64,000 nucleotides of DNA, taken from positions 94,386 to 158,385 of the forward strand of contig JAQUYH010000001.1 in NCBI GenBank assembly GCA_028691955.1, read 5' to 3'. Below the pieces are notes generated by a model. It did no database searches. It had not been told where the DNA came from and was given only the letters and a program-made list of their open reading frames with translations. Position numbers and translations under genes: made by a program. This DNA is from Bacilli bacterium (GTDB lineage Bacteria > Bacillota_I > Bacilli_A > RF39 > UBA660). Below, in pieces: positions 10,644 to 58,209 of this stretch (position 1 is its first letter; every line of letters starts with the position of its first letter).

Positions 10644-12404
10644 ATGCTAGGTAATATAGTATATATCAACGATAACATAGCCCATATTCAAATACCTGAC
10701 GGCACACCAATTGGAGCCAACTTAATGAACATGCATGTTATTTTTGAAGATGAGAGTAAAAAAATATTAGGAGAAGTAGAAGACATTAGTAAAGAAATTA
10801 TTAAAGTGCGCTTCTTAGGAGAAATAGTAAATAACAGTTTTATAGGCGGAGTAATAAGGAAACCATCACTATCAGCAAACTTGCGTATTATAACTAATGA
10901 TGAAGTAAAGCTGATCGTGGGTTCATCAAATGAATCAATAACAATTGGAGAAAGTCCTCTATATGACGGATATCCTATAACAGTAGATATTAACGAATTT
11001 TTTGGCCATCATCTAGCTATATTTGGCAATACCGGTAGTGGTAAGTCATGTGGAGTAGCGAGAATTCTACAAAATGTATTTCAAAATCAAAACATTGTTC
11101 CATATAAGGCAAACTTTCTAATATTTGATTCATATGGCGAATATAAAAATGCTTTTAAAAACATTGGTTCTATTAATTCTAATTTTAATTTCAAATTTTA
11201 TACAACAAGCAAGCCTGAAGAAAATAGCTTTAGCTTAGAAATCCCCCCATGGCTTATGTCAATTGATGACTTTTCTCTACTTCTTGGGGCAGATACACAT
11301 TCACAAATACCAATGATTGAAAGAATGTTAAAACTAACAAGGATATTTGCTTCAAAAGATGATCAAGCCACTAGTTATAAGAATCACTTAATAGCTTCAG
11401 CTATCATGATGATTTTATATACTAATCAGACTTCAGCCAGTAAAAGAAATGATATATTTTCCATATTAAACACGTGCTCAACTAATGAATTTAATTTAGA
11501 AGCTCCAGTTCAAGGAATAGGGTATGTTAGAAAATTTCGTGAATGTTTTTTAATAGATTCAACTGGCCAATTTTCAGAAAGCATTTTACTAACTCAATAT
11601 GTAAGTAGTTTTATAAAAGAAGAATTAAATAAATATGAAGTAGATGATGATTTATTCTTTACTTTAGAAGATGTTGAAAAAGCATTAAACTTTACTTTAA
11701 TTTCAGAAGGACTGCTTAGAAATGAAAAAGCATATAATGATGCCATAACTTTAAAAGTAAGGCTGCATTCACTAGTAATTAGTGAATATGGAAAATTTTT
11801 TAATTATCCAAAATTTATAACACTAGAAAACTATATAGCCAGTTTAGTAACCTATAATGGCAAGAAAGCTCAAATTATTAATTTTAATCTAGAGGATATT
11901 GATGACTCTATAGCAAAAGTAATAGTTAAAATATATACAAGATTACTCTTTGAATTCACAAAAAAATTAACAAAAAGAGCAAGTATACCTTTTCACATCT
12001 TTCTAGAGGAATCACACAGATATGTTCAGCAAGATAATGATAACTTTTTATTAGGATATAACGTGTTTGAAAGAGTGGCCAAAGAGGGAAGAAAATATGG
12101 TTTAGTTTTAGACTTGATAAGTCAAAGACCAGTTGAACTATCGGAAACCGTAATCTCACAGTGTAGTAACTTTTTAATATTTAAAATGACACACCCAAGA
12201 GATATTGAATATATTAAAAAAATGATACCTAATGTAAGTGCTGAAATAATTGAAAAGCAAAAAAGCTTACAACCAGGAACTTGCGTAGCCTTTGGAAGTG
12301 CATTTAAAGTTCCAATGATTATTAAACTAAAGCAAGCTGATCCAGAACCATCCAGTGGTAATAGTGATATATATGCTAATTGGCAGGTAAAAGGGAAACA
12401 ATAA
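10644..12404 (+). CDS. HerA-like ATPase of the FtsK/HerA superfamily (DUF87-type), paralogue 1
   Basis: N-terminal HAS-barrel-like region, Walker A GNTGSGKS, Walker B FHIFLEESHRY, and EGRKYGLVLDLISQRP. Only 10 nt after ylxM. Confidence 0.8.
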   Translation: MLGNIVYINDNIAHIQIPDGTPIGANLMNMHVIFEDESKKILGEVEDISKEIIKVRFLGEIVNNSFIGGVIRKPSLSANLRIITNDEVKLIVGSSNESITIGESPLYDGYPITVDINEFFGHHLAIFGNTGSGKSCGVARILQNVFQNQNIVPYKANFLIFDSYGEYKNAFKNIGSINSNFNFKFYTTSKPEENSFSLEIPPWLMSIDDFSLLLGADTHSQIPMIERMLKLTRIFASKDDQATSYKNHLIASAIMMILYTNQTSASKRNDIFSILNTCSTNEFNLEAPVQGIGYVRKFRECFLIDSTGQFSESILLTQYVSSFIKEELNKYEVDDDLFFTLEDVEKALNFTLISEGLLRNEKAYNDAITLKVRLHSLVISEYGKFFNYPKFITLENYIASLVTYNGKKAQIINFNLEDIDDSIAKVIVKIYTRLLFEFTKKLTKRASIPFHIFLEESHRYVQQDNDNFLLGYNVFERVAKEGRKYGLVLDLISQRPVELSETVISQCSNFLIFKMTHPRDIEYIKKMIPNVSAEIIEKQKSLQPGTCVAFGSAFKVPMIIKLKQADPEPSSGNSDIYANWQVKGKQ

Positions 12405-12502
12405 TATTACATGTAAAAAAATGTAAATTTAAGCAAAAAGATTGTCATTTATTTCTAAATGTGTTAATATTTAAATGTAAGTAAAAGTAAGGTGGTGATG
12501 AT

Positions 12503-12883
12503 ATGAAAAATAAAAAAGGTTTTACATTAATTGAACTTTTAGCCGTTATCGTTATATTAGCGATTATAGCAGTTATAGCAACACCAATAATCTTAGGAGT
12601 AATTGATGATGCTAGAACATCAGCAGCGGAAGATTCGGCTTATGGAGCACTTGATGCAATAAAGTCTTACTACGCCACATCACAAATATCAGCAAGTCCA
12701 GCAGCATTACCTTTGACAATAAATTTTGCCACACCAGCTGATGTTGCATTATTATCAATGTCAGGTACGGTGCCAACAGCAGGGTCAGTTACATTGTCAG
12801 CGGCAGGAGCATTTACTGTAACAGGGTTAACTGTAAACGGATATACATGTACTTATACTAGTGGAGCATTTTCTTGCTCATAA
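12503..12883 (+). CDS. type IV pilin (PilA-like major pilin)
   Basis: prepilin leader MKNKKG|FTLIELLAVIVILAII with Glu+5; C-terminal Cys pair (CTYTSGAFSC); strong RBS AAGGTGGTGA. Confidence 0.8.
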   Translation: MKNKKGFTLIELLAVIVILAIIAVIATPIILGVIDDARTSAAEDSAYGALDAIKSYYATSQISASPAALPLTINFATPADVALLSMSGTVPTAGSVTLSAAGAFTVTGLTVNGYTCTYTSGAFSCS

Positions 12884-12898
12884 TTTAAGGAGAATATT

Positions 12899-13315
12899 AT
12901 GAAAAACAATAAAGGATTTACTTTAATAGAACTTTTAGCTGTTATCGTTATATTAGCGATTATAGCTGTTATAGCAACACCAATAATCTTAGGAGTAATT
13001 GATGATGCTAGGACAAAAGCAGCTGAAAATTCAGCTTATGGAGCACTTGATGCAGTAAAATCATACTATGCTACATCACAAATAGGTGATACTCCAGTAA
13101 CTTTACCAATAACTATTAATTTTGGCACACCAGAAGCAGGTGAGTTGGCAGGCACTGTACTTTCAATGTCAGGTACAAAACCAACAGCAGGAACTATAAC
13201 ACTAGCAACTACTGGAGCATTTACAGTAGGAACAGCATTAACAATTTCTGTAAGTGGAACAAACTATAGTTGTAGTTATGCAAGTAATGAGTTTACTTGT
13301 GCAAAAGCTGCATAA
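12899..13315 (+). CDS. type IV pilin (PilA-like major pilin), paralogue
   Basis: N-terminal 40 aa nearly identical to the previous gene; C-terminal Cys pair (CSYASNEFTC). Confidence 0.8.
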   Translation: MKNNKGFTLIELLAVIVILAIIAVIATPIILGVIDDARTKAAENSAYGALDAVKSYYATSQIGDTPVTLPITINFGTPEAGELAGTVLSMSGTKPTAGTITLATTGAFTVGTALTISVSGTNYSCSYASNEFTCAKAA

Positions 13316-13331
13316 TTAATATATAAATATT

Positions 13332-13358
13332 AAAAGGCCTATATGGCTTTTTTTTTTG
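13332..13358 (+). terminator. rho-independent terminator after the tandem pilin genes
   Basis: AAAAGGCC-TATAT-GGCTTTT then T10. Confidence 0.55.
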
Positions 13359-13404
13359 TTTATTTTGTTATATAATAAATATATATAAAGAATAGAGGTA
13401 ATTT

Positions 13405-15180
13405 ATGCTTGGAAATATTATAGGAATAGAAGATAATAACATATTAATAAAATTAAATGTTGAACTTGATAAAATTCAAAGTTTGATTAACATGTATGTT
13501 GTATTTGATGATAATCAAAAATTAATGGTTGGCGAGATAGTAGATATTAAAGAGGGAATAGCTTCAGTTAATTTGCTAGGAGAGTTAATTAATGATGAGT
13601 TTGTTTTTGGCGTTATAAGAAAACCTTCATTTGGTTCAGGAGTAAAATTAATCAGTAAAGAAAAAATTCCAATGATTATAGGTTCACAATCATATGACGA
13701 AAAAGAAGATTTGATTTTAGGACAAAGCCCAGTATATGATGGAATAAATGTTGGAGTTAATATTAATTCTTTCTTTAACAATCACTTTGCTATTTTTGGC
13801 TCTACTGGTAGTGGTAAATCATGTAGTGTTGCTAGAATATTTCAAAATTTGTTTGAAAAAGAGACAAGCATTCCATATAAAGCAAATATTTTTATTTTTG
13901 ATGCCTATGGAGAATATCACACTGCATTTAGTAAACTACACGATAAAGTTCCAGAAATTAACTTTAAATCGTACACAACTAATTTAGAATTTAGTGAAAC
14001 CGAAATAATTAAAGTTCCGTTATGGTTTTTAGGAGTAGATGATATCGCCCTTTTATTATCAGCAGATAAACACTCACAACTTCCCATAATAGAAAAAGCT
14101 TTAAAATTAATTACCATATTTGCTAAAGAAGAAGAAGTTGTAATTAAACAAAAAAACGATATCATCGCACGTGCTTTATTAGATATTTTAAGTAGTGGTA
14201 GGCCATCTCCTCAAATAAGAGATCAAATATTTTCAATACTATCACATTTTAATACATCAGAATTAAATCTAGAAACAGAAATATTTCAACCAGGCTATAC
14301 CAGACCTTTAAAGCAATGTTTATTAATAGATGCATCAGGTAAAATTAGAGAGATGGAATTAATTACAACATTTATGAATAGTTTTCTAATTGAAAATATA
14401 GATTTAAATCTACCAGATGGAACATTTAAATATACCTTGACTGATTTAAAAGACGCTTTTGACTTTGCTCTAATAAGCGAAGGAATATTAAAGAGTGATA
14501 AAATATATGATGAAACAAATGCTTTAAAAGTAAGATTATATTCATTAGTTAATAGTAATTATAGCAAGTACTTTGATTATCCAGAGTATGTATCAAAAGA
14601 AGCTTATATTAGACAATTATTAACCGCACCAGATGGTAAAAAAGCTCAAATAATAAACTTCAATATAAATTATATTGATGATAGATTTGCTAAAACTTTA
14701 ACCAAGATATATTCAAAATTATTATTTGATTTTGGAAAAGATATAAATAAAAGAACATCTATGCCTTTTCACATAATACTAGAAGAAGCCCATAGATATG
14801 TTCAAAATGATACAGATATCGATTTAATAGGCTATAACATATTTGATAGAATTACCAAAGAAGGTAGAAAATATGGTGTTATCCTAGGCTTAATTACTCA
14901 AAGACCATCAGAAATGAGTGAAACAGCTTTGTCACAATGTAATAACTTTTTAGTATTTAAAATGCTGCACCCAAGGGATGTAACATATATAAAAGACATG
15001 GTTCCAAACATTACGACTGAAATAGTCAAAAGGCTTAGAATTTTGCAACCTGGCACATGTATTGCCTTTGGTGGAGCATTTAAAGTGCCAGTCTTAGTAA
15101 AATTTCAAATGCCAGACCCTGAACCAACAAGTAATAACTGTGACATAATTGATAAATGGTTTGTTACGAAGAAAGGATGA
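13405..15180 (+). CDS. HerA-like ATPase of the FtsK/HerA superfamily (DUF87-type), paralogue 2
   Basis: Walker A GSTGSGKS, Walker B FHIILEEAHRY, and EGRKYGVILGLITQRP. Clearly paralogous to 10644..12404. Confidence 0.8.
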   Translation: MLGNIIGIEDNNILIKLNVELDKIQSLINMYVVFDDNQKLMVGEIVDIKEGIASVNLLGELINDEFVFGVIRKPSFGSGVKLISKEKIPMIIGSQSYDEKEDLILGQSPVYDGINVGVNINSFFNNHFAIFGSTGSGKSCSVARIFQNLFEKETSIPYKANIFIFDAYGEYHTAFSKLHDKVPEINFKSYTTNLEFSETEIIKVPLWFLGVDDIALLLSADKHSQLPIIEKALKLITIFAKEEEVVIKQKNDIIARALLDILSSGRPSPQIRDQIFSILSHFNTSELNLETEIFQPGYTRPLKQCLLIDASGKIREMELITTFMNSFLIENIDLNLPDGTFKYTLTDLKDAFDFALISEGILKSDKIYDETNALKVRLYSLVNSNYSKYFDYPEYVSKEAYIRQLLTAPDGKKAQIINFNINYIDDRFAKTLTKIYSKLLFDFGKDINKRTSMPFHIILEEAHRYVQNDTDIDLIGYNIFDRITKEGRKYGVILGLITQRPSEMSETALSQCNNFLVFKMLHPRDVTYIKDMVPNITTEIVKRLRILQPGTCIAFGGAFKVPVLVKFQMPDPEPTSNNCDIIDKWFVTKKG

Positions 15181-25654: not shown

Positions 25655-26677
25655 ATGAGAAGTTTTGAACTATTATATGGAGAAGGAAAAACAGTTGATT
25701 TATGTTTATCAGCTTTTAGCTACGAAGAACATGGGAAGAAAGTTATAACACTTAATGCAAATAACGAACCAATAATATCTAAAGTTGAGACCTATTATAA
25801 ATATTTAGGAAGAGACTTATCTGATACTATTGGCGATGAACTGCTTCTTGAAAAAGCAATTAGATATAATGAAAAAGGCTTTAGTGCTATATTTGTTGAT
25901 AATGCTCATTTACTATCAGTAAATGATGTTGAACAATTATTTCTTATATCTTTAATATATAATATAAGAGTTGTTTGTTATACCAATAGAGTAGATACCG
26001 AAGGTGCTATTAGATGTTGGGAACTTGCTAATATAATAAAAAGAGTTGATGCTTCCAACGGAAGAAATAGTGATGATGTAACATTTATATATGGAGCAAT
26101 GGATTCATGTAAAACTAGTAGTTTACTAATAAAAGCAGACGTTCTTGAAAGAAGAAAGGGTAAACAAATAATAACAATAAAGCCTAAGTTAGATAGAACG
26201 GAAGAATATATAAAGTCTAGAGTTGGCATTAAAAGGAAAGCTGATTTGGTTATAGATAATACAAAGCCCTTAACTATTCCAAACCTAAAAGGACTTGATA
26301 CTATTCTAGTAGATGAAGCACAATTTTTATCTCCCGATATAATAGAATCTTTAACAGAAAAATGTAAAACGAACGGTATTCATATTATATTTTATGGTTT
26401 AAAGAGTGACTTTCGAACACAATCTTTTCCAGGAAGCAAAAAATTATTTCTATTATCAGATCAACTCATAAAACTTGATACAGTATGTGGTTGTACTAAT
26501 TTTGTTGAATTTAATGCCAGAACTGTAAATGATAGATATGTATATGAAGGAGACCAGTTCGTAGTAGATAATGGTGGTGAAATAGCATATCATTCATTAT
26601 GTGCAAATTGTTACGTAAGAGATGTTTGGCGACTACCAATTAATGATCATAAGGCACTAGTCAAAAGGTATATGTAA
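25655..26677 (+). CDS. tdk: thymidine kinase fused to an N-terminal degenerate TK-like domain
   Basis: C-terminal half aligns end-to-end with E. coli-type Tdk (ILVDEAQFL, YGLKSDFR, Zn ribbon CGC…CANC), but the P-loop is GAMDSCKTS. The N-terminal half is TK-like with GEGKT, VDNAH, and no Zn ribbon. Confidence 0.75.
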   Translation: MRSFELLYGEGKTVDLCLSAFSYEEHGKKVITLNANNEPIISKVETYYKYLGRDLSDTIGDELLLEKAIRYNEKGFSAIFVDNAHLLSVNDVEQLFLISLIYNIRVVCYTNRVDTEGAIRCWELANIIKRVDASNGRNSDDVTFIYGAMDSCKTSSLLIKADVLERRKGKQIITIKPKLDRTEEYIKSRVGIKRKADLVIDNTKPLTIPNLKGLDTILVDEAQFLSPDIIESLTEKCKTNGIHIIFYGLKSDFRTQSFPGSKKLFLLSDQLIKLDTVCGCTNFVEFNARTVNDRYVYEGDQFVVDNGGEIAYHSLCANCYVRDVWRLPINDHKALVKRYM

Positions 26678-26729: not shown

Positions 26730-28940
26730 ATGAAAAAAGGATTTACGCTAATTGAACTAATAGCTGTTATTACAATTATAAGCATTATTGCTTTGATTAC
26801 AACTTCGAGTATATTAGATGTTATTGATACAAGCAAAAAGAAAACAGCACTATTAACTGGTGAAAAAATAATAAGTGCTATAAAAGCTTATAGTGAAACA
26901 TATGAATTAGAAAATGGTGTTCCTTTTTATAATCAAAGATTATCAATAGAAAATCATTCTTTCACAGGAATAGATATATACTTGAATGATATTTTACCAG
27001 AAAAAGGAACAGTTAATATTAGTGATACAGGTGGCGTAACAATAGCTGTTTATAATGATGGTTATTGTGTATCTGGCAGCACTAAAAATTTAAATATTTA
27101 TGAAGGAGAATGCATAGATGTCTTAACAGCACCTTCGTTTACCATAGCTACAACTGAAAGTATTGATCAAAGTACTCTAACAATTATAGTAAATGCAACA
27201 GTATCAGAAGGCCAGGCGCTAGCTACAGAAGCTTATTCATTTGATAATGGAGCTAACTGGCAATCATCAAATGAACACCTTGTTACATCAGAAATTGGTT
27301 CATTTAACAATACAATATTAGTTAGAGATAATACACTTACAAATATTTCATCAAAAGATTTCAATATCAGTAAGCTTACAATAGATGCGAACGGTGGAGT
27401 AATTTCAGGATTAGATGAAACTCAAATATATTGGTTAGAACCGTCTACAATAGTCTCACTTTCAACACCGATAAAAATTGGGAACACATTTAACAATTGG
27501 GTTTTGTCTAGCAACAGCACTACACTTGGAGGGCTAACATATATAATGGGCTCAAGTGAGGAAACTTTAACAGCTAATTGGACCGTTAACACATATGTAT
27601 TAACTGTAAATGTGGATGGAGGAACATGGAGTGGAACAACACCTCAGGAATTACTATATGGAACATCAACCCCAATAAGTGATCCAACAAAAGTAGGAAA
27701 CAGCTTTGTTAGATGGGATAAAACTGGTACTGGAAGTGATTTGACAGAAGGAACTTTCACTATTGGTAATGAAAATGCAACATTAACAGCTATATGGTCA
27801 GTAAATGAATATATTTTAACAGTAGATAGTAATGGAGGAACGTGGAGTGGAACAACACCTCAAACTCTTGCTTATGGAACAACAATACCTATTAACTATC
27901 CAACAAAAACAAACTATACATTTACAGGGTGGAGTAAGTCTAATGAGAACAGTAATATAGATGAAACATCATTCACTATGGGTGATAGTAATATCACACT
28001 AACTGCAACATGGCTATTAACTTCTTGCGTACTAACAGTAGATGCTAATGGAGGGGCCTGGAGTGGAACAACACCTCAAACTTTAGCAATCGGGTCAACG
28101 ACAAATATTGTCAATCCTACGAAATCCGGAAGCGTTTTTGCAGGATGGCAAGTGTCAAGTGGAAGCAGCAATATAAGTGGGACTACGTTCACAATGGGGA
28201 ATGAAGATACTACTTTAACGGCATTGTGGTATACATATGAAGATATGTTCACATATACAGGAACTTATACTGTAATAGATGATGGTAATGGAAATTGGCG
28301 AATAAAATTTTTAACAAGTGGAACATTTACCCCTAAAGTAGATTTTACAATTGATGCGTTCTTAGTAGGAGGCGGAGGTGGCGGCTGCAGTCAATATGGA
28401 GGCGGCGGCGGTGGTGGTTATACCGCAACACACAGTAGTATAGCCATTACAAAAAATACCGCTTATACAATAACTAGAGGATCAGGCGGCGGCTTGAATC
28501 GTACTGGAGGAACAACCACGGCCTTTGGATACTCAGTTTCTGGTGGTAAACCAGGCGTAACTTGGAATGGTGGTAATGGTGGCTCTGGCGGCGGAGGCCA
28601 TAGTAATGATGCCGTCGGAGGAAATGGCGGTAGCAACGGAGGCAACGGAGGTTCTTCGGCAGGTAATGCTGGTGGAACTGGGCAAGGAACAACAACAAGA
28701 GAATTTGGAGAAAGAACAGGCACACTATATTCAGGTGGTGGAGCTGGCGGTGGTATTCACTTAAAATATAATGGTGGCTCTGGTGGCTCTGGCGGTGGGG
28801 CTCACGGGTCAGTAACCTTAACTTATGCAACTGCAAACACTGGTGGTGGCGGAGGCGGTGGCAATGGCTATGACACCCTTAGCAGTGCCTACGCAACAGG
28901 TGGTGCTTCTGGAATTGTAGTTATAAGAAACCATCGTTAA
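26730..28940 (+). CDS. large modular type IV pilin-like protein with four Listeria-Bacteroides (Flg_new) repeats and a C-terminal Gly-rich domain
   Basis: prepilin leader MKKG|FTLIELIAVITIISII (Glu+5); repeats VLTVDANGG.WSGTTPQ…PTK.G..F.GW; C-terminal roughly 190 aa of GGxGG-type sequence. Confidence 0.75.
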   Translation: MKKGFTLIELIAVITIISIIALITTSSILDVIDTSKKKTALLTGEKIISAIKAYSETYELENGVPFYNQRLSIENHSFTGIDIYLNDILPEKGTVNISDTGGVTIAVYNDGYCVSGSTKNLNIYEGECIDVLTAPSFTIATTESIDQSTLTIIVNATVSEGQALATEAYSFDNGANWQSSNEHLVTSEIGSFNNTILVRDNTLTNISSKDFNISKLTIDANGGVISGLDETQIYWLEPSTIVSLSTPIKIGNTFNNWVLSSNSTTLGGLTYIMGSSEETLTANWTVNTYVLTVNVDGGTWSGTTPQELLYGTSTPISDPTKVGNSFVRWDKTGTGSDLTEGTFTIGNENATLTAIWSVNEYILTVDSNGGTWSGTTPQTLAYGTTIPINYPTKTNYTFTGWSKSNENSNIDETSFTMGDSNITLTATWLLTSCVLTVDANGGAWSGTTPQTLAIGSTTNIVNPTKSGSVFAGWQVSSGSSNISGTTFTMGNEDTTLTALWYTYEDMFTYTGTYTVIDDGNGNWRIKFLTSGTFTPKVDFTIDAFLVGGGGGGCSQYGGGGGGGYTATHSSIAITKNTAYTITRGSGGGLNRTGGTTTAFGYSVSGGKPGVTWNGGNGGSGGGGHSNDAVGGNGGSNGGNGGSSAGNAGGTGQGTTTREFGERTGTLYSGGGAGGGIHLKYNGGSGGSGGGAHGSVTLTYATANTGGGGGGGNGYDTLSSAYATGGASGIVVIRNHR

Positions 28941-37649: not shown

Positions 37650-38732
37650 ATGACAGTAGTATCTATGAATTATCTACTAGAAGCTGGAGTTCACTTTGGT
37701 CATCAGACTAAAAGATGGAATCCAAAAATGAAAGAGTACATTTTTACTTCAAGGGATGATATTTATATCATTGACTTACAAAAAACAGCTAAATTAATAG
37801 AGGAGGCTTACACAGCTTTATATGAAATAGCTAAAAATGATGGCAAAGTTTTATTTGTTGGAACTAGAAAACAAGCTAGTGAAGCAATAAAAGATGAAGC
37901 TATCAGATCAAATTCTTATTATGTTTCAGAAAGATGGCTTGGTGGTACCTTAACAAACTTTAGAACAATTAGAAAAAGAGTTAAGAGATTAGAAGACATT
38001 GAGAAAATGGAATCAGATGGAACATTTGATTTACTTCCAAAAAAAGAAGTTATTGGTTTAAAGAAAGAATACAATAAATTAAATAAATTACTATGTGGTA
38101 TTCGTGAAATGAATAAAATACCTAATGCTTTATTTATTGTTGATCCTTCAAAAGAATATAATGCTATTAAAGAGGCAAGAATTCTTCATATTCCAGTATT
38201 TGGAATAGTTGATACTAATTGTGACCCAGACATGGTAGATTATGTAATACCAGGAAATGACGATGCAATTAGAGCCGTTAAACTAATCACAGGTGTTTTA
38301 GCTAATGCAATTGTAGAAGCTAATGGTGGAGAATTAGTTGACTTTGTTTCAGAAAATAAAAAAGAAGATGACAAAGGAATAATGGAAAAAGCATTAGAAA
38401 CAGTTAAGCCAAGAGAAGAAAGACCAAGAAATTTTCAAAACAACAATAATAGAAATTTTGATAGAAGAAACAATAAGCCAAGATTTGAAAACAGATTTGA
38501 AAATAAAAGAGAAGATAAAGTAGAAGTAAAAGTAGAAAATAAAATAGAAGAAAAAATAGAAAAAAAAGAAGTTGAAAAACCTGCCAAAGTAACAGAACCT
38601 GTTAAAGAAAAAGCTAATGATAAAGATTTATCAAAATTAACAGTTGCTGAATTAAGAGAAATGGCAAAAGACAAAGACATTAAAGGTTATTCTACACTTA
38701 AAAAAGCAGAACTTGTAGAAGCTTTAAGATAA
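37650..38732 (+). CDS. rpsB: 30S ribosomal protein S2 with a roughly 110-aa C-terminal extension (Lys/Glu/Asn-rich plus Rho-N/SAP-like motif)
   Basis: canonical S2 core ([13 protein letters not shown]…); tail [33 protein letters not shown]. Confidence 0.9.
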
Positions 38733-40303: not shown

Positions 40304-41686
40304 TTAAAATGAAACTTCTTCTATTGTATATGGTTTATGTTCCTCTTTAGGTGTCTCATTACCATTTTGCAAATTATCTTCTTGTTTAACTCCCTTATTA
40401 ACTATAGGTTCTTCTTTTTTTTCTTGCTTTTTATTTGAATGCAGAGCAATATTAGTAGCATCTAAAGAAGATTTTAAATCCATTTTTCCATAAGATTTAT
40501 CATCACTTTCAAGCTCAATAATCTTAAGTAGCTCTTCAACAGTGGTAAGACCACTTTCAACTTTTTCCAAACCATCTTGAATTAAAGTAGTAACATCAGA
40601 ATTATAAACAAGTTCTCTTAATTCCTCACGTTCCATATCATTACTTATAGCATCTTTTATTAGCTCATCTATAAGTAAAACTTCATGAATAGCAATACGA
40701 CCAGAATAACCATTATTACACTGTTCACAACCCTCAGCTATATATACTTCATTAACATCTTTATTTAATACAGTTTTAAATAAGTGCTTTTCATAATCAT
40801 TTGTAGGCCTTTTCTTTCTACAATTAGGGCAAAGCTTTCTAGCAAGTTTCTGTGAAACAATTCCTGTTAAAGAACTAGCGAGTAAATATCTTTCAACACC
40901 CATATCAACTAATCTTTCAATAGTTGTAAGAGAATCATTAGTATGTAGAGTAGACAATACAATATGACCAGTAATAGAGGCACGAACAGCAATTTTAGCT
41001 GTTTCAGTATCACGAATTTCACCAATCATTATAACATCAGGGTCCTGACGTAAAATACTTCTTAAAGCATTAGCAAACGTTAAACCAATTTCACTATTTG
41101 TTTGAACTTGGTTAATACCTTCGATATTCATTTCAATTGGGTCTTCAACAGTAATAACATTGGTTTCTTCTCGATTAAGTCGTTGCAAAATAGAGTAAAC
41201 AGTAGTAGATTTACCACTACCAGTAGCTCCTGTTACTAAAACAATACCGTTAGGTATACTAATCATTTTAAGAATTTTATGATAATTACTTTCACTAAAC
41301 CCTAAATGTTCAAGTCCACTTAAACTCAAAGAATAATCCAAAATACGAATAACTATTTTCTCACCCAAATTAGTAGGTAGACAGCTAACGCGCAAATCTA
41401 AATCTAAATCTTTTAAAGTAGTTTTAATAGCGCCATCCTGAGGTAATCTAGACTCAGTTATATTCATTCCAGAAATAATTTTAACACGAGTAATTAAGTT
41501 TTTACGTATAGTATTAGGTACTTCAGCGTAATCAATTAAACTACCATCTATTCTAATTCTGATTTTCATAAACTCTTCATGAGCATCCATATGAATATCA
41601 GAAGCTCCTCTTTTAGCAGCGTCCACTAATATTTCATTTACTACCTCAACAACAGGCATTTTTTCAAAGTCAAAAATTTTTAACAT
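40304..41686 (-). CDS. pilB: type IV pilus/type II secretion assembly ATPase (PilB/GspE family), short N-terminus, disordered C-terminal tail
   Basis: Walker A GATGSGKSTT, Asp box, Walker B DPDVIMIGEIRD, His box LSTLHTN, tetracysteine CPNC…CEQC. Confidence 0.85.
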   Translation of the reverse strand: MLKIFDFEKMPVVEVVNEILVDAAKRGASDIHMDAHEEFMKIRIRIDGSLIDYAEVPNTIRKNLITRVKIISGMNITESRLPQDGAIKTTLKDLDLDLRVSCLPTNLGEKIVIRILDYSLSLSGLEHLGFSESNYHKILKMISIPNGIVLVTGATGSGKSTTVYSILQRLNREETNVITVEDPIEMNIEGINQVQTNSEIGLTFANALRSILRQDPDVIMIGEIRDTETAKIAVRASITGHIVLSTLHTNDSLTTIERLVDMGVERYLLASSLTGIVSQKLARKLCPNCRKKRPTNDYEKHLFKTVLNKDVNEVYIAEGCEQCNNGYSGRIAIHEVLLIDELIKDAISNDMEREELRELVYNSDVTTLIQDGLEKVESGLTTVEELLKIIELESDDKSYGKMDLKSSLDATNIALHSNKKQEKKEEPIVNKGVKQEDNLQNGNETPKEEHKPYTIEEVSF

Positions 41687-49536: not shown

Positions 49537-51041
49537 AGAAAATCAACATTATATTAGGAAGCATAACATTATATCTATCAATATTTATAATATTTTTAGT
49601 TAGATGGGCATTAACCACATTTGGTAAACAACCTGTAGACAGCATGTTGTTTACTCTTTTTAACTCATTTTCAGACTCCAGTACAACTATGTTAAACAAT
49701 TTTTATAAACACTGTCTAATTCCAGCAACAATAATATATATAATTATTATGTTAATACTATTCTTTAATCCATTAAAATTAGAAATTAAAGCTGAGTTGA
49801 AAAAATTAAATGAGAAAAAATACACACTATTTCCTTTCATCTATATAAAAAAATTTTTCTTTGCAATAAATATAGTAACACTAGTTATTATTGGATATAT
49901 TTCAGCAGACCAATTTGGAATAACTGACTATATAGTGGCTCAAGCAACTTCATCAGATTTTATTGAAGCTAATTATGCAGATCCAGAAACAACCGAAATA
50001 ATTTTTCCAAGTCAAAAAAGGAATTTAATATATATTTATATGGAATCGCTTGAGACAACATATCTATCTAATACACTAGGTGGATATCAAAGCACAAATT
50101 TAATGCCTAAACTAACAGAACTAACAAGTGGACAAACTAATTTTTCTAATACAGACCTATTAGGTGGAGCAGTGTCTAGTAGTGGATCTACTTGGACAAT
50201 TGCAGGCATGGTTTCAACAACAGCTGGTATTCCATTAAAAGTTGATGTTGATGGTAATTCATATGGTTCTGAAGATGATTTTTTGCCTGGTGCTTATAAT
50301 TTAGGAGATATCCTTGAAAAAGAAGGATATAATCAAATGATAATGATGGGATCAGATTCACTATTTGCAGGTCGTAAGTATTATTTTACTCTTCATGGAA
50401 ATTATGATATTTTTGATTACTATACAGCTATATCAGAAGGTAAAATTAGTAGCTCATACAAAGTATGGTGGGGATATGAAGACAGCAAACTATATGAATA
50501 TGCTAAAGAAAAATTAGCTGTTTTAGCAAGTGAAGATGAACCATTTAACTTTACATTGCTAACTGCAGACACACATTTTCCAGACGGTTATTTGAGCGAA
50601 TATTGTAGTTATTCAAATAAATATGATGATAATCTAAGTAACGTTGTAGTATGTGCTGATGATATGTTATATGATTTTATATCATGGATCAAAGAACAAG
50701 ACTTTTATGACAATACCACCATTGTTATCAGCGGTGATCATATAAGCATGGATCAGAACTTCTTTAAAGATGTAAGTGATGACTACACAAGAACAGTATA
50801 TAATTTATTTATTAATTCTGCTGTGACAACTGAAAATAATAAAAATAGAAATTTTACAACTCTCGATATGTTTCCAACAACTTTAGCCAGTCTAGGTGTA
50901 ATAATTGATGGAGATAAACTTGGCCTAGGAACTAATTTGTTTTCAGATAAACAAACATTAACGGAACAGTATGGAATAGATTATATTAACCAAGAATTAG
51001 ATAAATCATCAGATTTTTATAAAGAAAATATTTTGAAATAG
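49530..51041 (+). CDS. LTA-synthase/sulfatase-family membrane protein (alkaline-phosphatase superfamily)
   Basis: N-terminal TMs; IYIYMESLET and ISGDH metal-site motifs; overlaps the previous gene. Confidence 0.6.
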   Translation: MLKKINIILGSITLYLSIFIIFLVRWALTTFGKQPVDSMLFTLFNSFSDSSTTMLNNFYKHCLIPATIIYIIIMLILFFNPLKLEIKAELKKLNEKKYTLFPFIYIKKFFFAINIVTLVIIGYISADQFGITDYIVAQATSSDFIEANYADPETTEIIFPSQKRNLIYIYMESLETTYLSNTLGGYQSTNLMPKLTELTSGQTNFSNTDLLGGAVSSSGSTWTIAGMVSTTAGIPLKVDVDGNSYGSEDDFLPGAYNLGDILEKEGYNQMIMMGSDSLFAGRKYYFTLHGNYDIFDYYTAISEGKISSSYKVWWGYEDSKLYEYAKEKLAVLASEDEPFNFTLLTADTHFPDGYLSEYCSYSNKYDDNLSNVVVCADDMLYDFISWIKEQDFYDNTTIVISGDHISMDQNFFKDVSDDYTRTVYNLFINSAVTTENNKNRNFTTLDMFPTTLASLGVIIDGDKLGLGTNLFSDKQTLTEQYGIDYINQELDKSSDFYKENILK

Positions 51042-51162
51042 TAAATTTGACTTTTTATTAAAAAGTGCTATAATACATATTGCAGGGAAGGGAAATAAGG
51101 TAATATTTCCCTCTCCATTTTTTATAAATTTGACAAATTATATATGTTATGTTAGAATCTTA

Positions 51163-51758
51163 GACATTGATGGCACATTATTCTAGTCAGGATAATTTGT
51201 TATGAAGGCGGGGGTAAAATACCGTTAAAGAGCATATCTATGAAGCTTTTGGTGCTTGCTTCTTACGCCCAGTCTGGGGTGAGTGCTGGAAGGTATAAAC
51301 TATGGGCATCCGTAATGGCATACGATAGTGACCCACAGTTTAGTTGAAGACCTATTTTATATTTAATATATAATAGGAAAACCTACCATATGGCGAAAGT
51401 TATGGGTAGCGTAGCTTGTCTTGAGTGATAATAGGGGATAGTTAATCTATTTTAAATAGTATGGCCGTATTATTTAAATATTGGAATTTGAAACTATTAT
51501 TGCAAAAAAGAATAATAACAAATGAAACCTGTTGAGGAAATCTCCTAGGGTGTTGCATAATATAGGATTACAGTGCGTACTAAGTGGTAATCAAGTCGTA
51601 TATTTGGTGACAATATACTTGTTTCTTTAAAAGGGAACTGCTATACTGGTAACGGATAGTAGAAACAAGGGAAATCCTACTTGACCTATGACGTAAAGTT
51701 AACTATATTAAAGTCCAATCAAACCAAAGGTATATGTGTTTACATATATTTTTTTTTA
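51163..51758 (+). ncRNA. ole: large structured non-coding RNA, candidate OLE RNA
   Basis: about 600-nt ORF-free GC-enriched tract; own promoter TTGACA-17-TAGAAT (51130-51158); terminator hairpin TATATGT/ACATATA plus T9 (51731-51757); immediately upstream of a small 4-TM protein. Confidence 0.5.
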
Positions 51759-51785
51759 TGTTAAAATACCTTTGAGGTAAAATAA

Positions 51786-52319
51786 ATGGCAAAGAAAAAC
51801 AAACAAAATATTACAAAATGGATTGTTAAAATTTCAATTTTAGCTTTCATTATTTCCTTTTCACTATCGGCTTTATCAGAAGCATTGCTTCCTAAAATAA
51901 ATATAATAATAGGTATAATTATACTACTAATATTTATTTTTATCGGCGTTTTATTTGATATGATAGGAGTAGCTTTTACGTCAGCTGATGAAGAACCTTT
52001 TCATGCCCAGAGCTCAAGAAAAGTGCATGGAGCATCTACTGCTGTAAAACTAATTAAAAATGCACCTAGAGTCTCTAGCTTCTGTAATGATGTTGTAGGT
52101 GACATCTGTGGTATTTTATCAGGTAGCGCAGGTGTTGTTATAGCAGCGGGATTAATTAGTAATATGCATTTAAATAGTTACATAACAGCTCTAACAGTAA
52201 CCGCTATAATTTCATCTTTAACTATAGGGTTAAAAGCTATAGGAAAAGAAATAGCAATAAAGAACAATACAAAAATAATTTCAGCTTTTTCCAAAACAAT
52301 ATCAATATTTTATAAATAA
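51786..52319 (+). CDS. oapA: small four-TM membrane protein, candidate OapA (OLE-associated protein A)
   Basis: 177 aa; four predicted TMs; DVVGD (DxxxD) motif; immediately downstream of the ncRNA. Confidence 0.55.
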   Translation: MAKKNKQNITKWIVKISILAFIISFSLSALSEALLPKINIIIGIIILLIFIFIGVLFDMIGVAFTSADEEPFHAQSSRKVHGASTAVKLIKNAPRVSSFCNDVVGDICGILSGSAGVVIAAGLISNMHLNSYITALTVTAIISSLTIGLKAIGKEIAIKNNTKIISAFSKTISIFYK

Positions 52320-52345
52320 GCAAGTAATAATACTTGCTTTTTTTC
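52318..52345 (+). terminator. rho-independent terminator after the oapA-like gene
   Basis: AAGCAAGTA-ATAA-TACTTGCTT then T7. Confidence 0.6.
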
Positions 52346-54595: not shown

Positions 54596-55432
54596 GTGAA
54601 TGAAGCCACTGAAGTTGAAGAGAAAGTAACAGAAAAAGAAGAAGTCAAAATATTATTAGACATGCTAAATTATAGAAAAGAAGGATATAAAAAAGGCAGT
54701 TTGAATGGTACAATAGGAACAATTTTAGTTATTATATGTAGTTTATTATCCTTAATAACGCCAATTTTATCAGTTGCAGCAATAGCAATAATAGGGCCAA
54801 TAGCTGTATTTAAGGCGATAAAGGAAAGAAGAAAGTCGTTAAAAAAAGATAAAAAAACAAAAAAAGCAATGAGGAAATATATAGGAAGAAGAAACAACAC
54901 ATTATTTGAAGCGATAAGTTCTAAAAGTAACAATATATCTGTAAATGGTAAAGCTAAAAACGAAGAAATTCAAAACAATCAAGAGGTTATGGATTCTATG
55001 CAAATTAAGCTAGAAGGAATAAAGCTTGATTCAAGAATAAAACTATCAACACTACTTAATTTTATTTTATATTTAGTTTTATTATTGGCCTTACCTGGAT
55101 CAACATTACCAATAATACTATTGATTGCCGGTGAAACGTCTATGGTTGGATTAAATGTATTAAAAAGTCAAAAAGGTTTAAAAAATAAATTTGGAAAATC
55201 AAGGCTTAAAGCATTGAAGAAAAAATACGCAAAAGAAACATTTGATAGTCTATCAAGCCAATTAAATAGTAATATTACAAAGATTTCAGAAAAACAAATA
55301 GAACATGAAACTGCAGCACCAACGAAAAATCAACATCAAGTTAGTAACACTTATGATCATGAACGAGCAAATGATGCTGAATTTTCAGAAATATCAATAA
55401 GTGCTGAAGAGCCTCATCCTCATGTAAGATAA
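54596..55432 (+). CDS. hypothetical membrane protein
   Basis: RBS GAGGAGGGG; TM segments; Lys-rich. Confidence 0.5.
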   Translation: MNEATEVEEKVTEKEEVKILLDMLNYRKEGYKKGSLNGTIGTILVIICSLLSLITPILSVAAIAIIGPIAVFKAIKERRKSLKKDKKTKKAMRKYIGRRNNTLFEAISSKSNNISVNGKAKNEEIQNNQEVMDSMQIKLEGIKLDSRIKLSTLLNFILYLVLLLALPGSTLPIILLIAGETSMVGLNVLKSQKGLKNKFGKSRLKALKKKYAKETFDSLSSQLNSNITKISEKQIEHETAAPTKNQHQVSNTYDHERANDAEFSEISISAEEPHPHVR

Positions 55433-55553
55433 TAACTAATAAAGCAAAAGAGAAAACTTTTCTCTTTTTTATGTCAATAATTTTAAATTTGTTTAACCAG
55501 TTTGACAATCAATTAAAAAAATGCTAACATAAGGCCCATTAAGAGGGATTTTT

Positions 55554-56402
55554 ATGAATGAAGAAAAGGAAATATTAAAAGCAATTGAACTAAAAAACTT
55601 TAAAAATAAAATTTTAAGCATTATTACAACAGACAGTATTTTTATAGGAAGCGCTATTGTTTCAGTAATATCTCACTCATGGATTATTTTATCATTAATA
55701 GTTGGTTTTGGAATTTATTTAAACATCGATGTTCCAAAAAAAATGAAAAAAGAGCATGAGCTTAGTTATAAAGGCATTACCAAAAGGGAAGGGAAAGCTA
55801 TTTTAAAAAAATATAAAACTAGTGATTTTATTTCATTAGTTGAAAAATTGGAAGAAAATGCAAATTTAAATATGAAAAACAGAGAAGTTCCAGAATTAGA
55901 GTTATTAGAAGACACTTTTTCCGCTAATAAGCAAGCACATAAAAATTTAATGGATATTATGTTTGCCACTGCGTGTAAGGATACAAAATGGAATATGAAA
56001 AAACAAGCTTTAGCTATAGCTATTTCTGCAACAATTATTAGTTTTTATCTTTCAACAGGGGTAATATCAATAATTTTAATATGGATCGGCCAATCTATAA
56101 TAAATCATCAAATAGACACCGAAATGAAAAAAATATTAAACAAAAAAGTAAATGATGAGCGTTTATTAGAGTTGGAAAAAGAATTTTCAAATTTCCAACA
56201 TTTAATTGATTTTACGGATTATTATCAAGTATCACTTTTACTAAATAAAAAGCTCGACTTTATATTAAATTTCTTGATACATAAAGCCAAGAAAAAAGAA
56301 AATGCAGATTTAAAAGTAGCTAATGAAGAAAAAAAACATACAATAAATTTAGCAGAGTTTAAAAAGCATGATAAACCAAAAGTATATACCCTAAAAAAAT
56401 AG
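55554..56402 (+). CDS. hypothetical membrane protein
   Basis: RBS AAGAGGGA; TM segments. Confidence 0.5.
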   Translation: MNEEKEILKAIELKNFKNKILSIITTDSIFIGSAIVSVISHSWIILSLIVGFGIYLNIDVPKKMKKEHELSYKGITKREGKAILKKYKTSDFISLVEKLEENANLNMKNREVPELELLEDTFSANKQAHKNLMDIMFATACKDTKWNMKKQALAIAISATIISFYLSTGVISIILIWIGQSIINHQIDTEMKKILNKKVNDERLLELEKEFSNFQHLIDFTDYYQVSLLLNKKLDFILNFLIHKAKKKENADLKVANEEKKHTINLAEFKKHDKPKVYTLKK

Positions 56403-58134: not shown

Positions 58135-58209
58135 TGCCGATTTAGTTAAGTGGTATAACAGATCCATGGTAAGGATCAGTGGACAGTCCGATTCTGTCAT
58201 TCGGCACCA
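58135..58209 (+). tRNA. tRNA-Thr (anticodon GGU) with encoded CCA
   Basis: cloverleaf: acceptor GCCGATT/ATTCGGC, D-arm GTTA-AGTGGTA-TAAC, anticodon stem GATCC/GGATC with loop ATGGTAA, T-arm GACAG-TCCGATT-CTGTC, 3' ACCA. Coordinates +/-2 nt. Confidence 0.7.

Follow-up and report, generated by a model that had tools for sequence, protein, structure and literature searches.

In a 64,000-nt stretch of an uncultured Bacilli bacterium genome (assembly GCA_028691955.1, contig JAQUYH010000001.1, positions 94,386–158,385 of the forward strand; hereafter the window), the gap between an LtaS-like gene and the gene for a 177-aa membrane protein almost certainly holds a full-length-type ole gene, encoding an OLE RNA, followed by oapA, the gene for the OLE-binding membrane-anchor protein, with ole probably its own transcription unit. 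An initial annotation, made from the letters of the window, had named this gap as a candidate OLE RNA gene, and the identification is now borne out by an Rfam match, by OapA features in the protein encoded downstream and by a conserved spacer that carries compensatory changes. The element is an ordinary further member of an already described RNA class, found by standard annotation. Coordinates are window positions, and features lie on the plus strand unless a minus strand is given. Several lines of evidence carry the assignment.

First, the comparison with Rfam models that the initial annotation had proposed gave a full-length match to OLE (RF01071) at 51154–51734 (+), scoring 374.3 bits against a gathering score of 50 (E 2.2e-106) and covering model positions 1–616 of 616 without truncation; the mature RNA would run from about 51165 to 51757. 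Across the whole 64-kb window, the scan at gathering scores returned only OLE and one tRNA, so that ROOL, GOLLD, HEARO, RNase P and tmRNA, the other large RNAs put forward for comparison, are excluded here. Of the pairs in the consensus, 140 can be placed on window residues, and 131 of these are canonical. OLE RNAs are marked by blocks of highly conserved nucleotides, about 25% of positions, and 208 of the 249 strongly conserved (upper-case) consensus positions are identical in the window copy. The remaining 41 differ mostly by a change from G or C to A or U, as is expected in a genome with 28% GC.

The gap itself follows a 503-aa sulfatase-family (LtaS-like) open reading frame (ORF) that ends at 51041, and the next ORF begins with an ATG at 51786. 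As initially annotated, no ORF of 60 aa or more lies between them on either strand; none exceeds 38 aa, and small-protein coding in the gap was rejected because the longest ORFs reach only 32–38 aa and substitutions track base pairing. The GC fraction is 0.344 over 51165–51757, compared with 0.283 for the whole window and 0.26 at 51041–51129, with a local peak of 0.405 in 51200–51399. The GC enrichment that had been claimed is therefore real but modest, and every string quoted for it is present. The 593-nt candidate transcript folds with a minimum free energy of −153.6 kcal/mol (z −3.7), and 0 of 100 dinucleotide shuffles fold as well.

Second, the RNA resembles the full-length OLE class (RF01071; Puerta-Fernandez et al. 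2006; Fernando and Breaker 2024) in its length of about 590 nt, its end-to-end match and its P1–P9 and domain-2 helices, in keeping the P4, P5.1, P6.1 and P9 loops and the GNRA-plus-bulge OapB site of P13, and in having oapA directly downstream and an anaerobic Bacillota host. In cryo-electron microscopy (cryo-EM) models, OLE dimers make contact through the P4 loop, the complementary P5.1 and P6.1 loops and the P9 loop (PMC12265935), and the sequence of the window contains all of them. The P4 hairpin (51207–51226) carries the A-rich loop GGUAAAAUA; P5/P5.1 (51246–51292, or 51236–51298 with the flanking kink-turn strands) carries the loop GCCCA; P6/P6.1 (51297–51341) carries the conserved loop AAUGGCAU, which makes the kissing contact with the P5.1 loop in dimers; and P9 (51418–51512), a long arm of 95 nt, carries a palindromic GGCC loop (UGGCCG, 51462–51467). 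These four elements were placed by Rfam alignment and pairing, with covariation in addition for P4, P6/P6.1 and P9. Between P6.1 and P9 lie P7, a 12-bp AU-rich hairpin (51351–51377) with 11 of its 12 pairs canonical, and P8 (51383–51409), a full-size hairpin capped by GCGAAAGU and placed by pairing and covariation.

Two further helices, P1 and P3, are part of the current published OLE model and absent from the Rfam model, and were tested by per-sequence duplex energies with alignment anchors. Terminal closure by P1 gives a median z of −3.4. P3 plus P3.1, published as about 12 bp (PMC12265935), forms here a 12-bp long-range helix round domain 1 that spans 51189–51530 (51189–51191 with 51528–51530; 51195–51203 with 51515–51523). 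Its duplex z is −3.8 in the window, against a median of −2.5 for 65 sequences with 57 distinct strands. By analogy with other OLE RNAs, the helix corresponds to the proposed membrane-spanning stem. The duplex test was used for P3 because column-wise covariation broke down (50% canonical cells) on a MAFFT alignment in which the variable strands are mis-registered, and because anchoring by regular expressions lost most sequences.

The domain-2 region (51558–51710) consists of three nested long-range helices that enclose P13 (51598–51618) and P14/P14.1 (51619–51668, with a GUAA loop), placed by pairing and covariation. Every pair in this region is canonical in the window, and across relatives 90–99.5% of cells are canonical, with compensatory changes. 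The binding site of OapB is a GNRA tetraloop plus a single-nucleotide bulge in P13 (PMC7936274), and the window P13 (GUAUAU-U-UG GUGA CA AUAUAC) has both, as a GUGA loop and a bulged U.

Three types of OLE have been described (PMC11332333). Besides the full-length type there are variant 1, in which P7, P8 and P9 are short and the OapB site of P13 is often missing, and variant 2, which lacks P7 and P8. Judged by its helices, the window RNA belongs to the full-length type, with P7 as its one trimmed helix. Its P7 region, at 33 nt, is the third shortest of 68 (median 53; nearest relatives 49–64), and P7 is known to be dispensable (PMC11332333; PMC12265935). Variant 2 (RF39-type), which has neither P7 nor P8, is ruled out since both are present and P8 is of full size; variant 1 (TANB77-type), which shortens P8 and P9 too, is ruled out since only P7 is short and P8, P9 and P13 are intact. 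With both variants the window copy shares an uncultured low-GC Bacilli host with relatives mostly from gut metagenomes, some reduction in size through its short P7, and the possible loss of one accessory-protein site, the OapC kink-turn. From the full-length class it differs in that P7 is cut to the 12-bp AU hairpin, in its GC content of 34%, in lacking the small hairpin at model positions 424–437, as does its clade, and in a kink-turn substitution considered below.

Third, comparison with relatives supports a structure under selection. The 177-aa protein has 2,979 homologues, 32 of which were aligned; with this alignment, 80 loci were recovered from species-representative genomes, mostly metagenome-assembled genomes (MAGs) of uncultured gut 'Bacilli bacterium' and some Clostridia. 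An Rfam scan of the first 20 loci (numbered here with the prefix L) found a full-length OLE in 16 and a contig-truncated copy in a 17th (L021), with OLE directly upstream of the oapA homologue in 15 of the 20. By nhmmer, OLE is present in 72 of the 80 loci, usually directly upstream of oapA. With the original flanks, nhmmer found no OLE match at L004, L006, L050, L057, L072 and L078, and the upstream sequence of L041 was too short to judge; L002 also scored as lacking OLE at first, and a longer flank of the same contig (L084) places OLE 3.1 kb upstream. The closest OLE among the species-representative loci is 79% identical.

Covariation and conservation of the spacer, which the initial annotation had suggested as a check, were examined in sets of 65–68 related OLE loci depending on the test, and compensatory changes appear in dozens of related genomes. 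Over 65 loci, 12 of the 15 multi-pair model helices have 87–100% canonical cells; the lower-scoring ones are the P7 stub (60%), the distal part of P9 (62%) and P6 (80%), the first two because MAFFT or cmscan misaligns variable stems. Compensatory changes occur in at least half the pairs of all 15 helices.

These comparisons also bear on the possibility that the locus is a decaying or non-functional OLE remnant that matches the model by descent. The truncated P7, the missing hairpin at model positions 424–437, a kink-turn C–G pair that cannot form and the 41 differing conserved positions could all be read as signs of decay. Yet the match is untruncated with nearly all its pairs canonical, P7 is known to be dispensable (PMC11332333; PMC12265935), the small hairpin is missing in higher-scoring relatives too, the OapB site and each of the four loops that make dimer contacts are intact, the promoter is conserved, and the adjoining oapA is intact with all its invariant residues. 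Against its closest relative, L082, the window copy shows 7 compensatory and 7 one-sided pair-preserving changes, that is, 14 that preserve pairing, and 6 that break it. We therefore give the remnant explanation very little probability: taken together with the helix covariation, the pattern of substitution indicates that structural selection acts on ole in this lineage and that the gene is no relic.

Six of the related contigs (L001, L021, L027, L063, L087 and L088) end inside the OLE gene. Probably assembly graphs break at the conserved RNA, much as they do at rRNA operons, and OLE would in consequence be under-represented in MAGs. The P0024 and P0012 contigs likewise break within OLE and yield no upstream sequence from these close relatives.

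Fourth, the gene downstream has the features of oapA. It spans 51786–52319, is preceded by a ribosome-binding site (GAGGT, 51775–51779) and was characterized by ORF calling, Pfam, homologues and a predicted fold. The initial annotation had described its product as a small protein with four transmembrane segments that resembles OapA, and the details agree: the 177 residues include four hydrophobic helices at about 11–36, 40–66, 103–127 and 131–153, with basic termini and a basic loop, and a DxxxD motif (D102-V-V-G-D106) whose two aspartates are invariant in the 32 aligned homologues. DxxxD is a feature of OapA that is absent from true CNNM domains (PMC11332333). The Pfam CNNM model matches residues 45–177 with 25.6 bits, under its cutoff of 28.4, and such a sub-threshold match is the published behaviour of OapA (PMC11332333). 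The collected homologues are 41–73% identical to the window protein.

Because no NCBIfam model matched OapA and a sequence search of PDB chains found no match, we turned to a predicted structure and a fold search. The AlphaFold model is all-helical (pLDDT, the model's own confidence score, 85.7), and the top four PDB matches by Foldseek are MtCorB (7m1t/7m1u) and the CorC membrane domain (7cff), the same CorB/CorC structure family that has been reported for H. halodurans OapA (PMC11332333). A Mg2+ transporter of the MpfA/CorB type was considered and ruled out: the likeness to CNNM/CorB/CorC/MpfA proteins is confined to the sub-threshold CNNM match and the nearest predicted fold, whereas those transporters have a CBS pair and a CorC_HlyC domain, which the window protein, ending at residue 177, lacks. 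The mpfA gene is known to anticorrelate with OLE. Like known OapA proteins it is small, with four predicted membrane helices, DxxxD, basic cytoplasmic segments and a gene that adjoins ole, and on its sequence and modelled fold it is OapA, the four-helix CNNM-like OLE-binding membrane protein.

The RNA and oapA lie next to each other in the same orientation, the RNA first and a terminator-like hairpin between the two, and our promoter scan gave oapA no strong promoter of its own. Such an arrangement would also suit an RNA that acts mainly in cis, as a 5′ leader (a riboswitch or attenuator) of oapA, and not as a stand-alone molecule. This is highly improbable. The RNA matches a family shown experimentally to be an abundant trans-acting ribonucleoprotein component (PMC12265935), and no riboswitch family matches in the Rfam scan. 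Further, four genes part OLE from oapA in L084/L085, so OLE is not simply an oapA leader, and 1–2 kb separate the two in several other relatives. A stand-alone OLE RNA is the reading that we carry forward.

Transcription signals for such an RNA can be placed at both ends. A scan of the region gave 20 promoter-like matches compared with 10.3 ± 3.5 expected; because an AT-rich region yields many such matches, the scan alone is weak promoter evidence, and the support comes from positional conservation in relatives. The proximal promoter, P2 (51130–51158; TTGACA-17-TAGAAT, TG-extended, 11/12), which the initial annotation had taken as the 5′ boundary of the RNA, has counterparts of the form TTGAY-N16–18-TANNNT in the same register in 38 of 50 Bacilli-type OLE loci, 35 of the 38 being TG-extended. 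From the end of the −10 box to the TGGCRCA anchor the distance is 12 nt in the window and a median of 13 nt in relatives. This would put the transcription start at about 51165, in exact register with the 5′ strand of helix P1.

At the 3′ end, the hairpin plus T9 that had been proposed as the boundary (51731–51757) is present as part of a candidate ole terminator at 51726–51757, with an A-tract, a 7-bp core stem (51731–51737 with 51742–51748), a GUUU loop and T9 (51749–51757). Counting the A-tract, it forms 12 pairs at −8.2 kcal/mol (z −2.1), and in many relatives the interval between OLE and oapA has a hairpin with a T-run, or a T-run by itself. Between promoter and terminator the RNA would measure about 590 nt, close to the 595 nt first estimated, a length supported by the positional conservation of both signals. 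The oapA start lies 29 nt past the T-run, a weak promoter-like site (TTTACA-17-TAAAAT, 51739–51767) overlaps the terminator, and an intrinsic terminator (52318–52339, −10 kcal/mol, z −4.5) follows oapA.

We propose that ole is transcribed as its own unit from the conserved extended −10 promoter, that the 5′ and 3′ ends of the RNA pair as P1, and that most transcripts would stop at the weak AU-rich terminator, whereas expression of oapA would rely on read-through or on the weak site at 51739–51767, giving much RNA and little protein. By analogy with other species, two OLE RNAs would then dimerize through the P4, P5.1/P6.1 and P9 loops, the dimers would bind OapA dimers to form a membrane-embedded ribonucleoprotein, and this particle would help the cell to withstand stresses that include cold, short-chain alcohols, poor carbon sources and an excess of Mg2+.

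Five points weigh against this picture. The ole terminator stem is weak, and the consensus scan missed it because it has only one G–C pair. The transcript ends, the efficiency of the terminator and the route by which oapA is expressed are read from sequence. The Foldseek E-values that link OapA to CorB are modest (0.02–1.2), though the corresponding probabilities are 0.93–1.0. None of the ORFs scanned within the 64-kb window has an OapB-like (KOW) or OapC-like (L7Ae-type) domain. Finally, the kink-turn lacks a G, so that this RNA may have lost the use of at least one feature that is essential in H. halodurans.

This last point merits detail. Binding of OapC (YbxF) requires a kink-turn with a C85–G144 pair next to a 3-nt bulge and G–A pairs (PMC9723947). 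By that definition, the strands in the window are AUC-UAU-GAAG (51236–51245) and GUAUAA (51293–51298); C51238 is present, and the equivalents of G144 (model position 144) and G145 are A51297 and A51298. An A–G dinucleotide is absent throughout 51293–51300 and present in 63 of 68 relatives. The motif is therefore incomplete in the window, a loss common to the close relatives L082 and L086. It is a partner-binding feature, essential in H. halodurans, and does not define membership of the family. The P4a palindrome CAUCGAUG is also broken in the window, where it reads UAUCUAUG.

Upstream of P2, directly past the LtaS-like stop, lie a second promoter and a hairpin. The distal promoter, here called promoter P1 (51047–51074; TTGACT-16-TATAAT, sigma-70-type, TG-extended, 11/12 in the promoter scan), is followed by a conserved hairpin at 51085–51116 (core GGGAAATAAGGTAATATTTCCC, 51090–51111; −14.8 kcal/mol) and by T6 (51118–51123). 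The initial annotation had suggested that 51047–51125 may be the terminator of the preceding operon. The promoter, hairpin and T-run that it listed are confirmed and a terminator role is plausible; the description was incomplete in that these are the sole OLE-proximal promoter elements in the two closest lineages. An identical GGGAAATAAGGTAATATTTCCC core with a promoter of the same type stands upstream of OLE in L082/L083 (L082 4410–4490) and in L084/L085 (L084 3150–3235). L082 and L084 keep both the −35 and the −10 box of promoter P1, with a varying spacer, and the outer stem of the hairpin differs in sequence among the three lineages with its pairing kept. Because L082/L083 and L084/L085 have no proximal promoter, OLE there would be transcribed through the hairpin.

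Within the window the GGGAAATAAGGTAATATTTCCC hairpin is unique. It is restricted to these three lineages: neither L086 and L089 nor the wider clade has it. Its 20-nt core was also sought in JGI metagenome contigs, with 0 matches, and a permissive Rfam E-value scan of 51030–51175 gave chance-level matches only (E ≥ 0.5, far below gathering scores). From its position, where a terminator of the LtaS-like operon is expected, the hairpin is terminator-like and may also serve as a 5′ leader of OLE; its candidate roles include a terminator, a 5′ leader or stabilizer, an attenuator and a tiny RNA.

It follows that OLE in the window might be transcribed mainly from promoter P1 through the hairpin as a 5′ leader (a stabilizer, attenuator or processing site), with P2 secondary. 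The two lineages in which a P1-type promoter and the identical hairpin core are the sole promoter-like elements upstream of OLE argue for this, as do the boxes, core and outer-stem pairing kept in all three lineages, and the hairpin would begin 3–4 nt past the predicted P1 start site. The window, however, has a consensus proximal promoter between the hairpin and OLE at the clade-conserved distance, the hairpin is followed by T6 and placed as a terminator of the LtaS-like operon would be, and the element is confined to three lineages, with no further copies found. On balance we regard transcription mainly from promoter P1 as somewhat improbable and prefer P2 as the promoter of ole.

A broader reading of the same details is that this sub-lineage runs a re-wired OLE system, with an OapC-independent particle, as the loss of the kink-turn C–G pair suggests, and an added upstream hairpin with its own promoter. 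We consider this unlikely. If it were true, the hairpin, as leader, attenuator or stabilizer, could couple expression of OLE to the operon of the PASTA, glycosyltransferase family 4 and LtaS-like genes.

That operon belongs to a conserved neighbourhood. The order PASTA protein (minus strand), glycosyltransferase family 4, LtaS-like sulfatase and OLE is kept in the closest relatives L082, L084/L085 and L086, and downstream in the window lie an FtsX/MacB-type ABC (ATP-binding cassette) transporter and CTP synthase. Reported OLE neighbours are mostly isoprenoid, DNA-repair and translation genes, whereas those in the window are cell-envelope genes (PASTA, glycosyltransferase family 4, LtaS-like, FtsX/ABC); published gene associations of OLE include cell-wall genes (PMC12265935). 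H. halodurans ole differs in being embedded in a long polycistronic cluster, where the window ole has its own promoter and terminator. The four genes that stand between OLE and oapA in L084/L085 follow oapA in L086, L088 and L089. As the block lies directly after oapA elsewhere, gene order indicates that either oapA or the block has moved between lineages. The block itself (L084/L085 3939–6981; L086 5852–8897) comprises genes for a Pfam-less protein of about 475 aa, for a glycosyltransferase of family 2 and for two small membrane proteins that resemble EamA.

NCBI lists the exact OapA sequence, from a MAG, as 'hypothetical protein PHD02_00770 [Bacilli bacterium]', and an uncultured Bacilli host agrees with the distribution of OLE in Bacillota that are typically anaerobic or extremophilic. 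The PFOR and PPDK genes within the window suggest an anaerobic host. Comparison with other large structured RNAs leads to the same assignment: ROOL, GOLLD, HEARO and raiA resemble OLE as large structured non-coding RNAs of Bacillota that form, or are suspected of forming, higher-order complexes, but none matches the window at its gathering score, and those families have no oapA partner.

Elsewhere in the window, a single tRNA-Thr (GGU) lies at 58136–58209 (+). The gene for ribosomal protein bS2 (37650–38732, +) encodes 360 aa, with an S2 domain of 215 residues (9–223) and a long C-terminal extension that ends in a Rho_N-like domain (residues 326–359). Two HerA/DUF87-type ATPases flank two prepilin-type (N_methyl) proteins at 10644–15180 (+), a 736-aa N_methyl protein with Listeria–Bacteroides repeats and a glycine-rich domain is encoded at 26730–28940 (+), and a T2SSE ATPase at 40304–41686 (−); from their domains, these genes together look like an unusual pilus or pseudopilus set. 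The thymidine kinase ORF (25655–26677, +) begins with about 140 additional residues that match no Pfam family, maybe a mis-called start or a fusion. Past the ABC transporter, adjacent ORFs of 278 and 282 aa (54596–56402, +) are lysine-rich with hydrophobic segments and match no Pfam or NCBIfam family.

OLE is among the largest and best-conserved bacterial non-coding RNAs, and recent structural work indicates that it may span the membrane; we know of no organism in which its biochemical activity is established. Against this background, the window holds a new member of a well-known class, whose short P7, missing kink-turn pair, upstream hairpin and cell-envelope neighbourhood are lineage-specific details. 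This OLE adds nothing fundamental, since a routine Rfam scan is enough to identify it, and its details are perhaps useful to specialists. The cell-envelope neighbourhood fits the proposed link between OLE and the envelope. The RNA is also a natural example that keeps all dimer contacts and the OapB site with a trimmed P7 and without the OapC-binding pair of the model organism, and natural minimal or re-wired copies of this kind help to show what in the RNA, and which of its protein partners, is truly indispensable.

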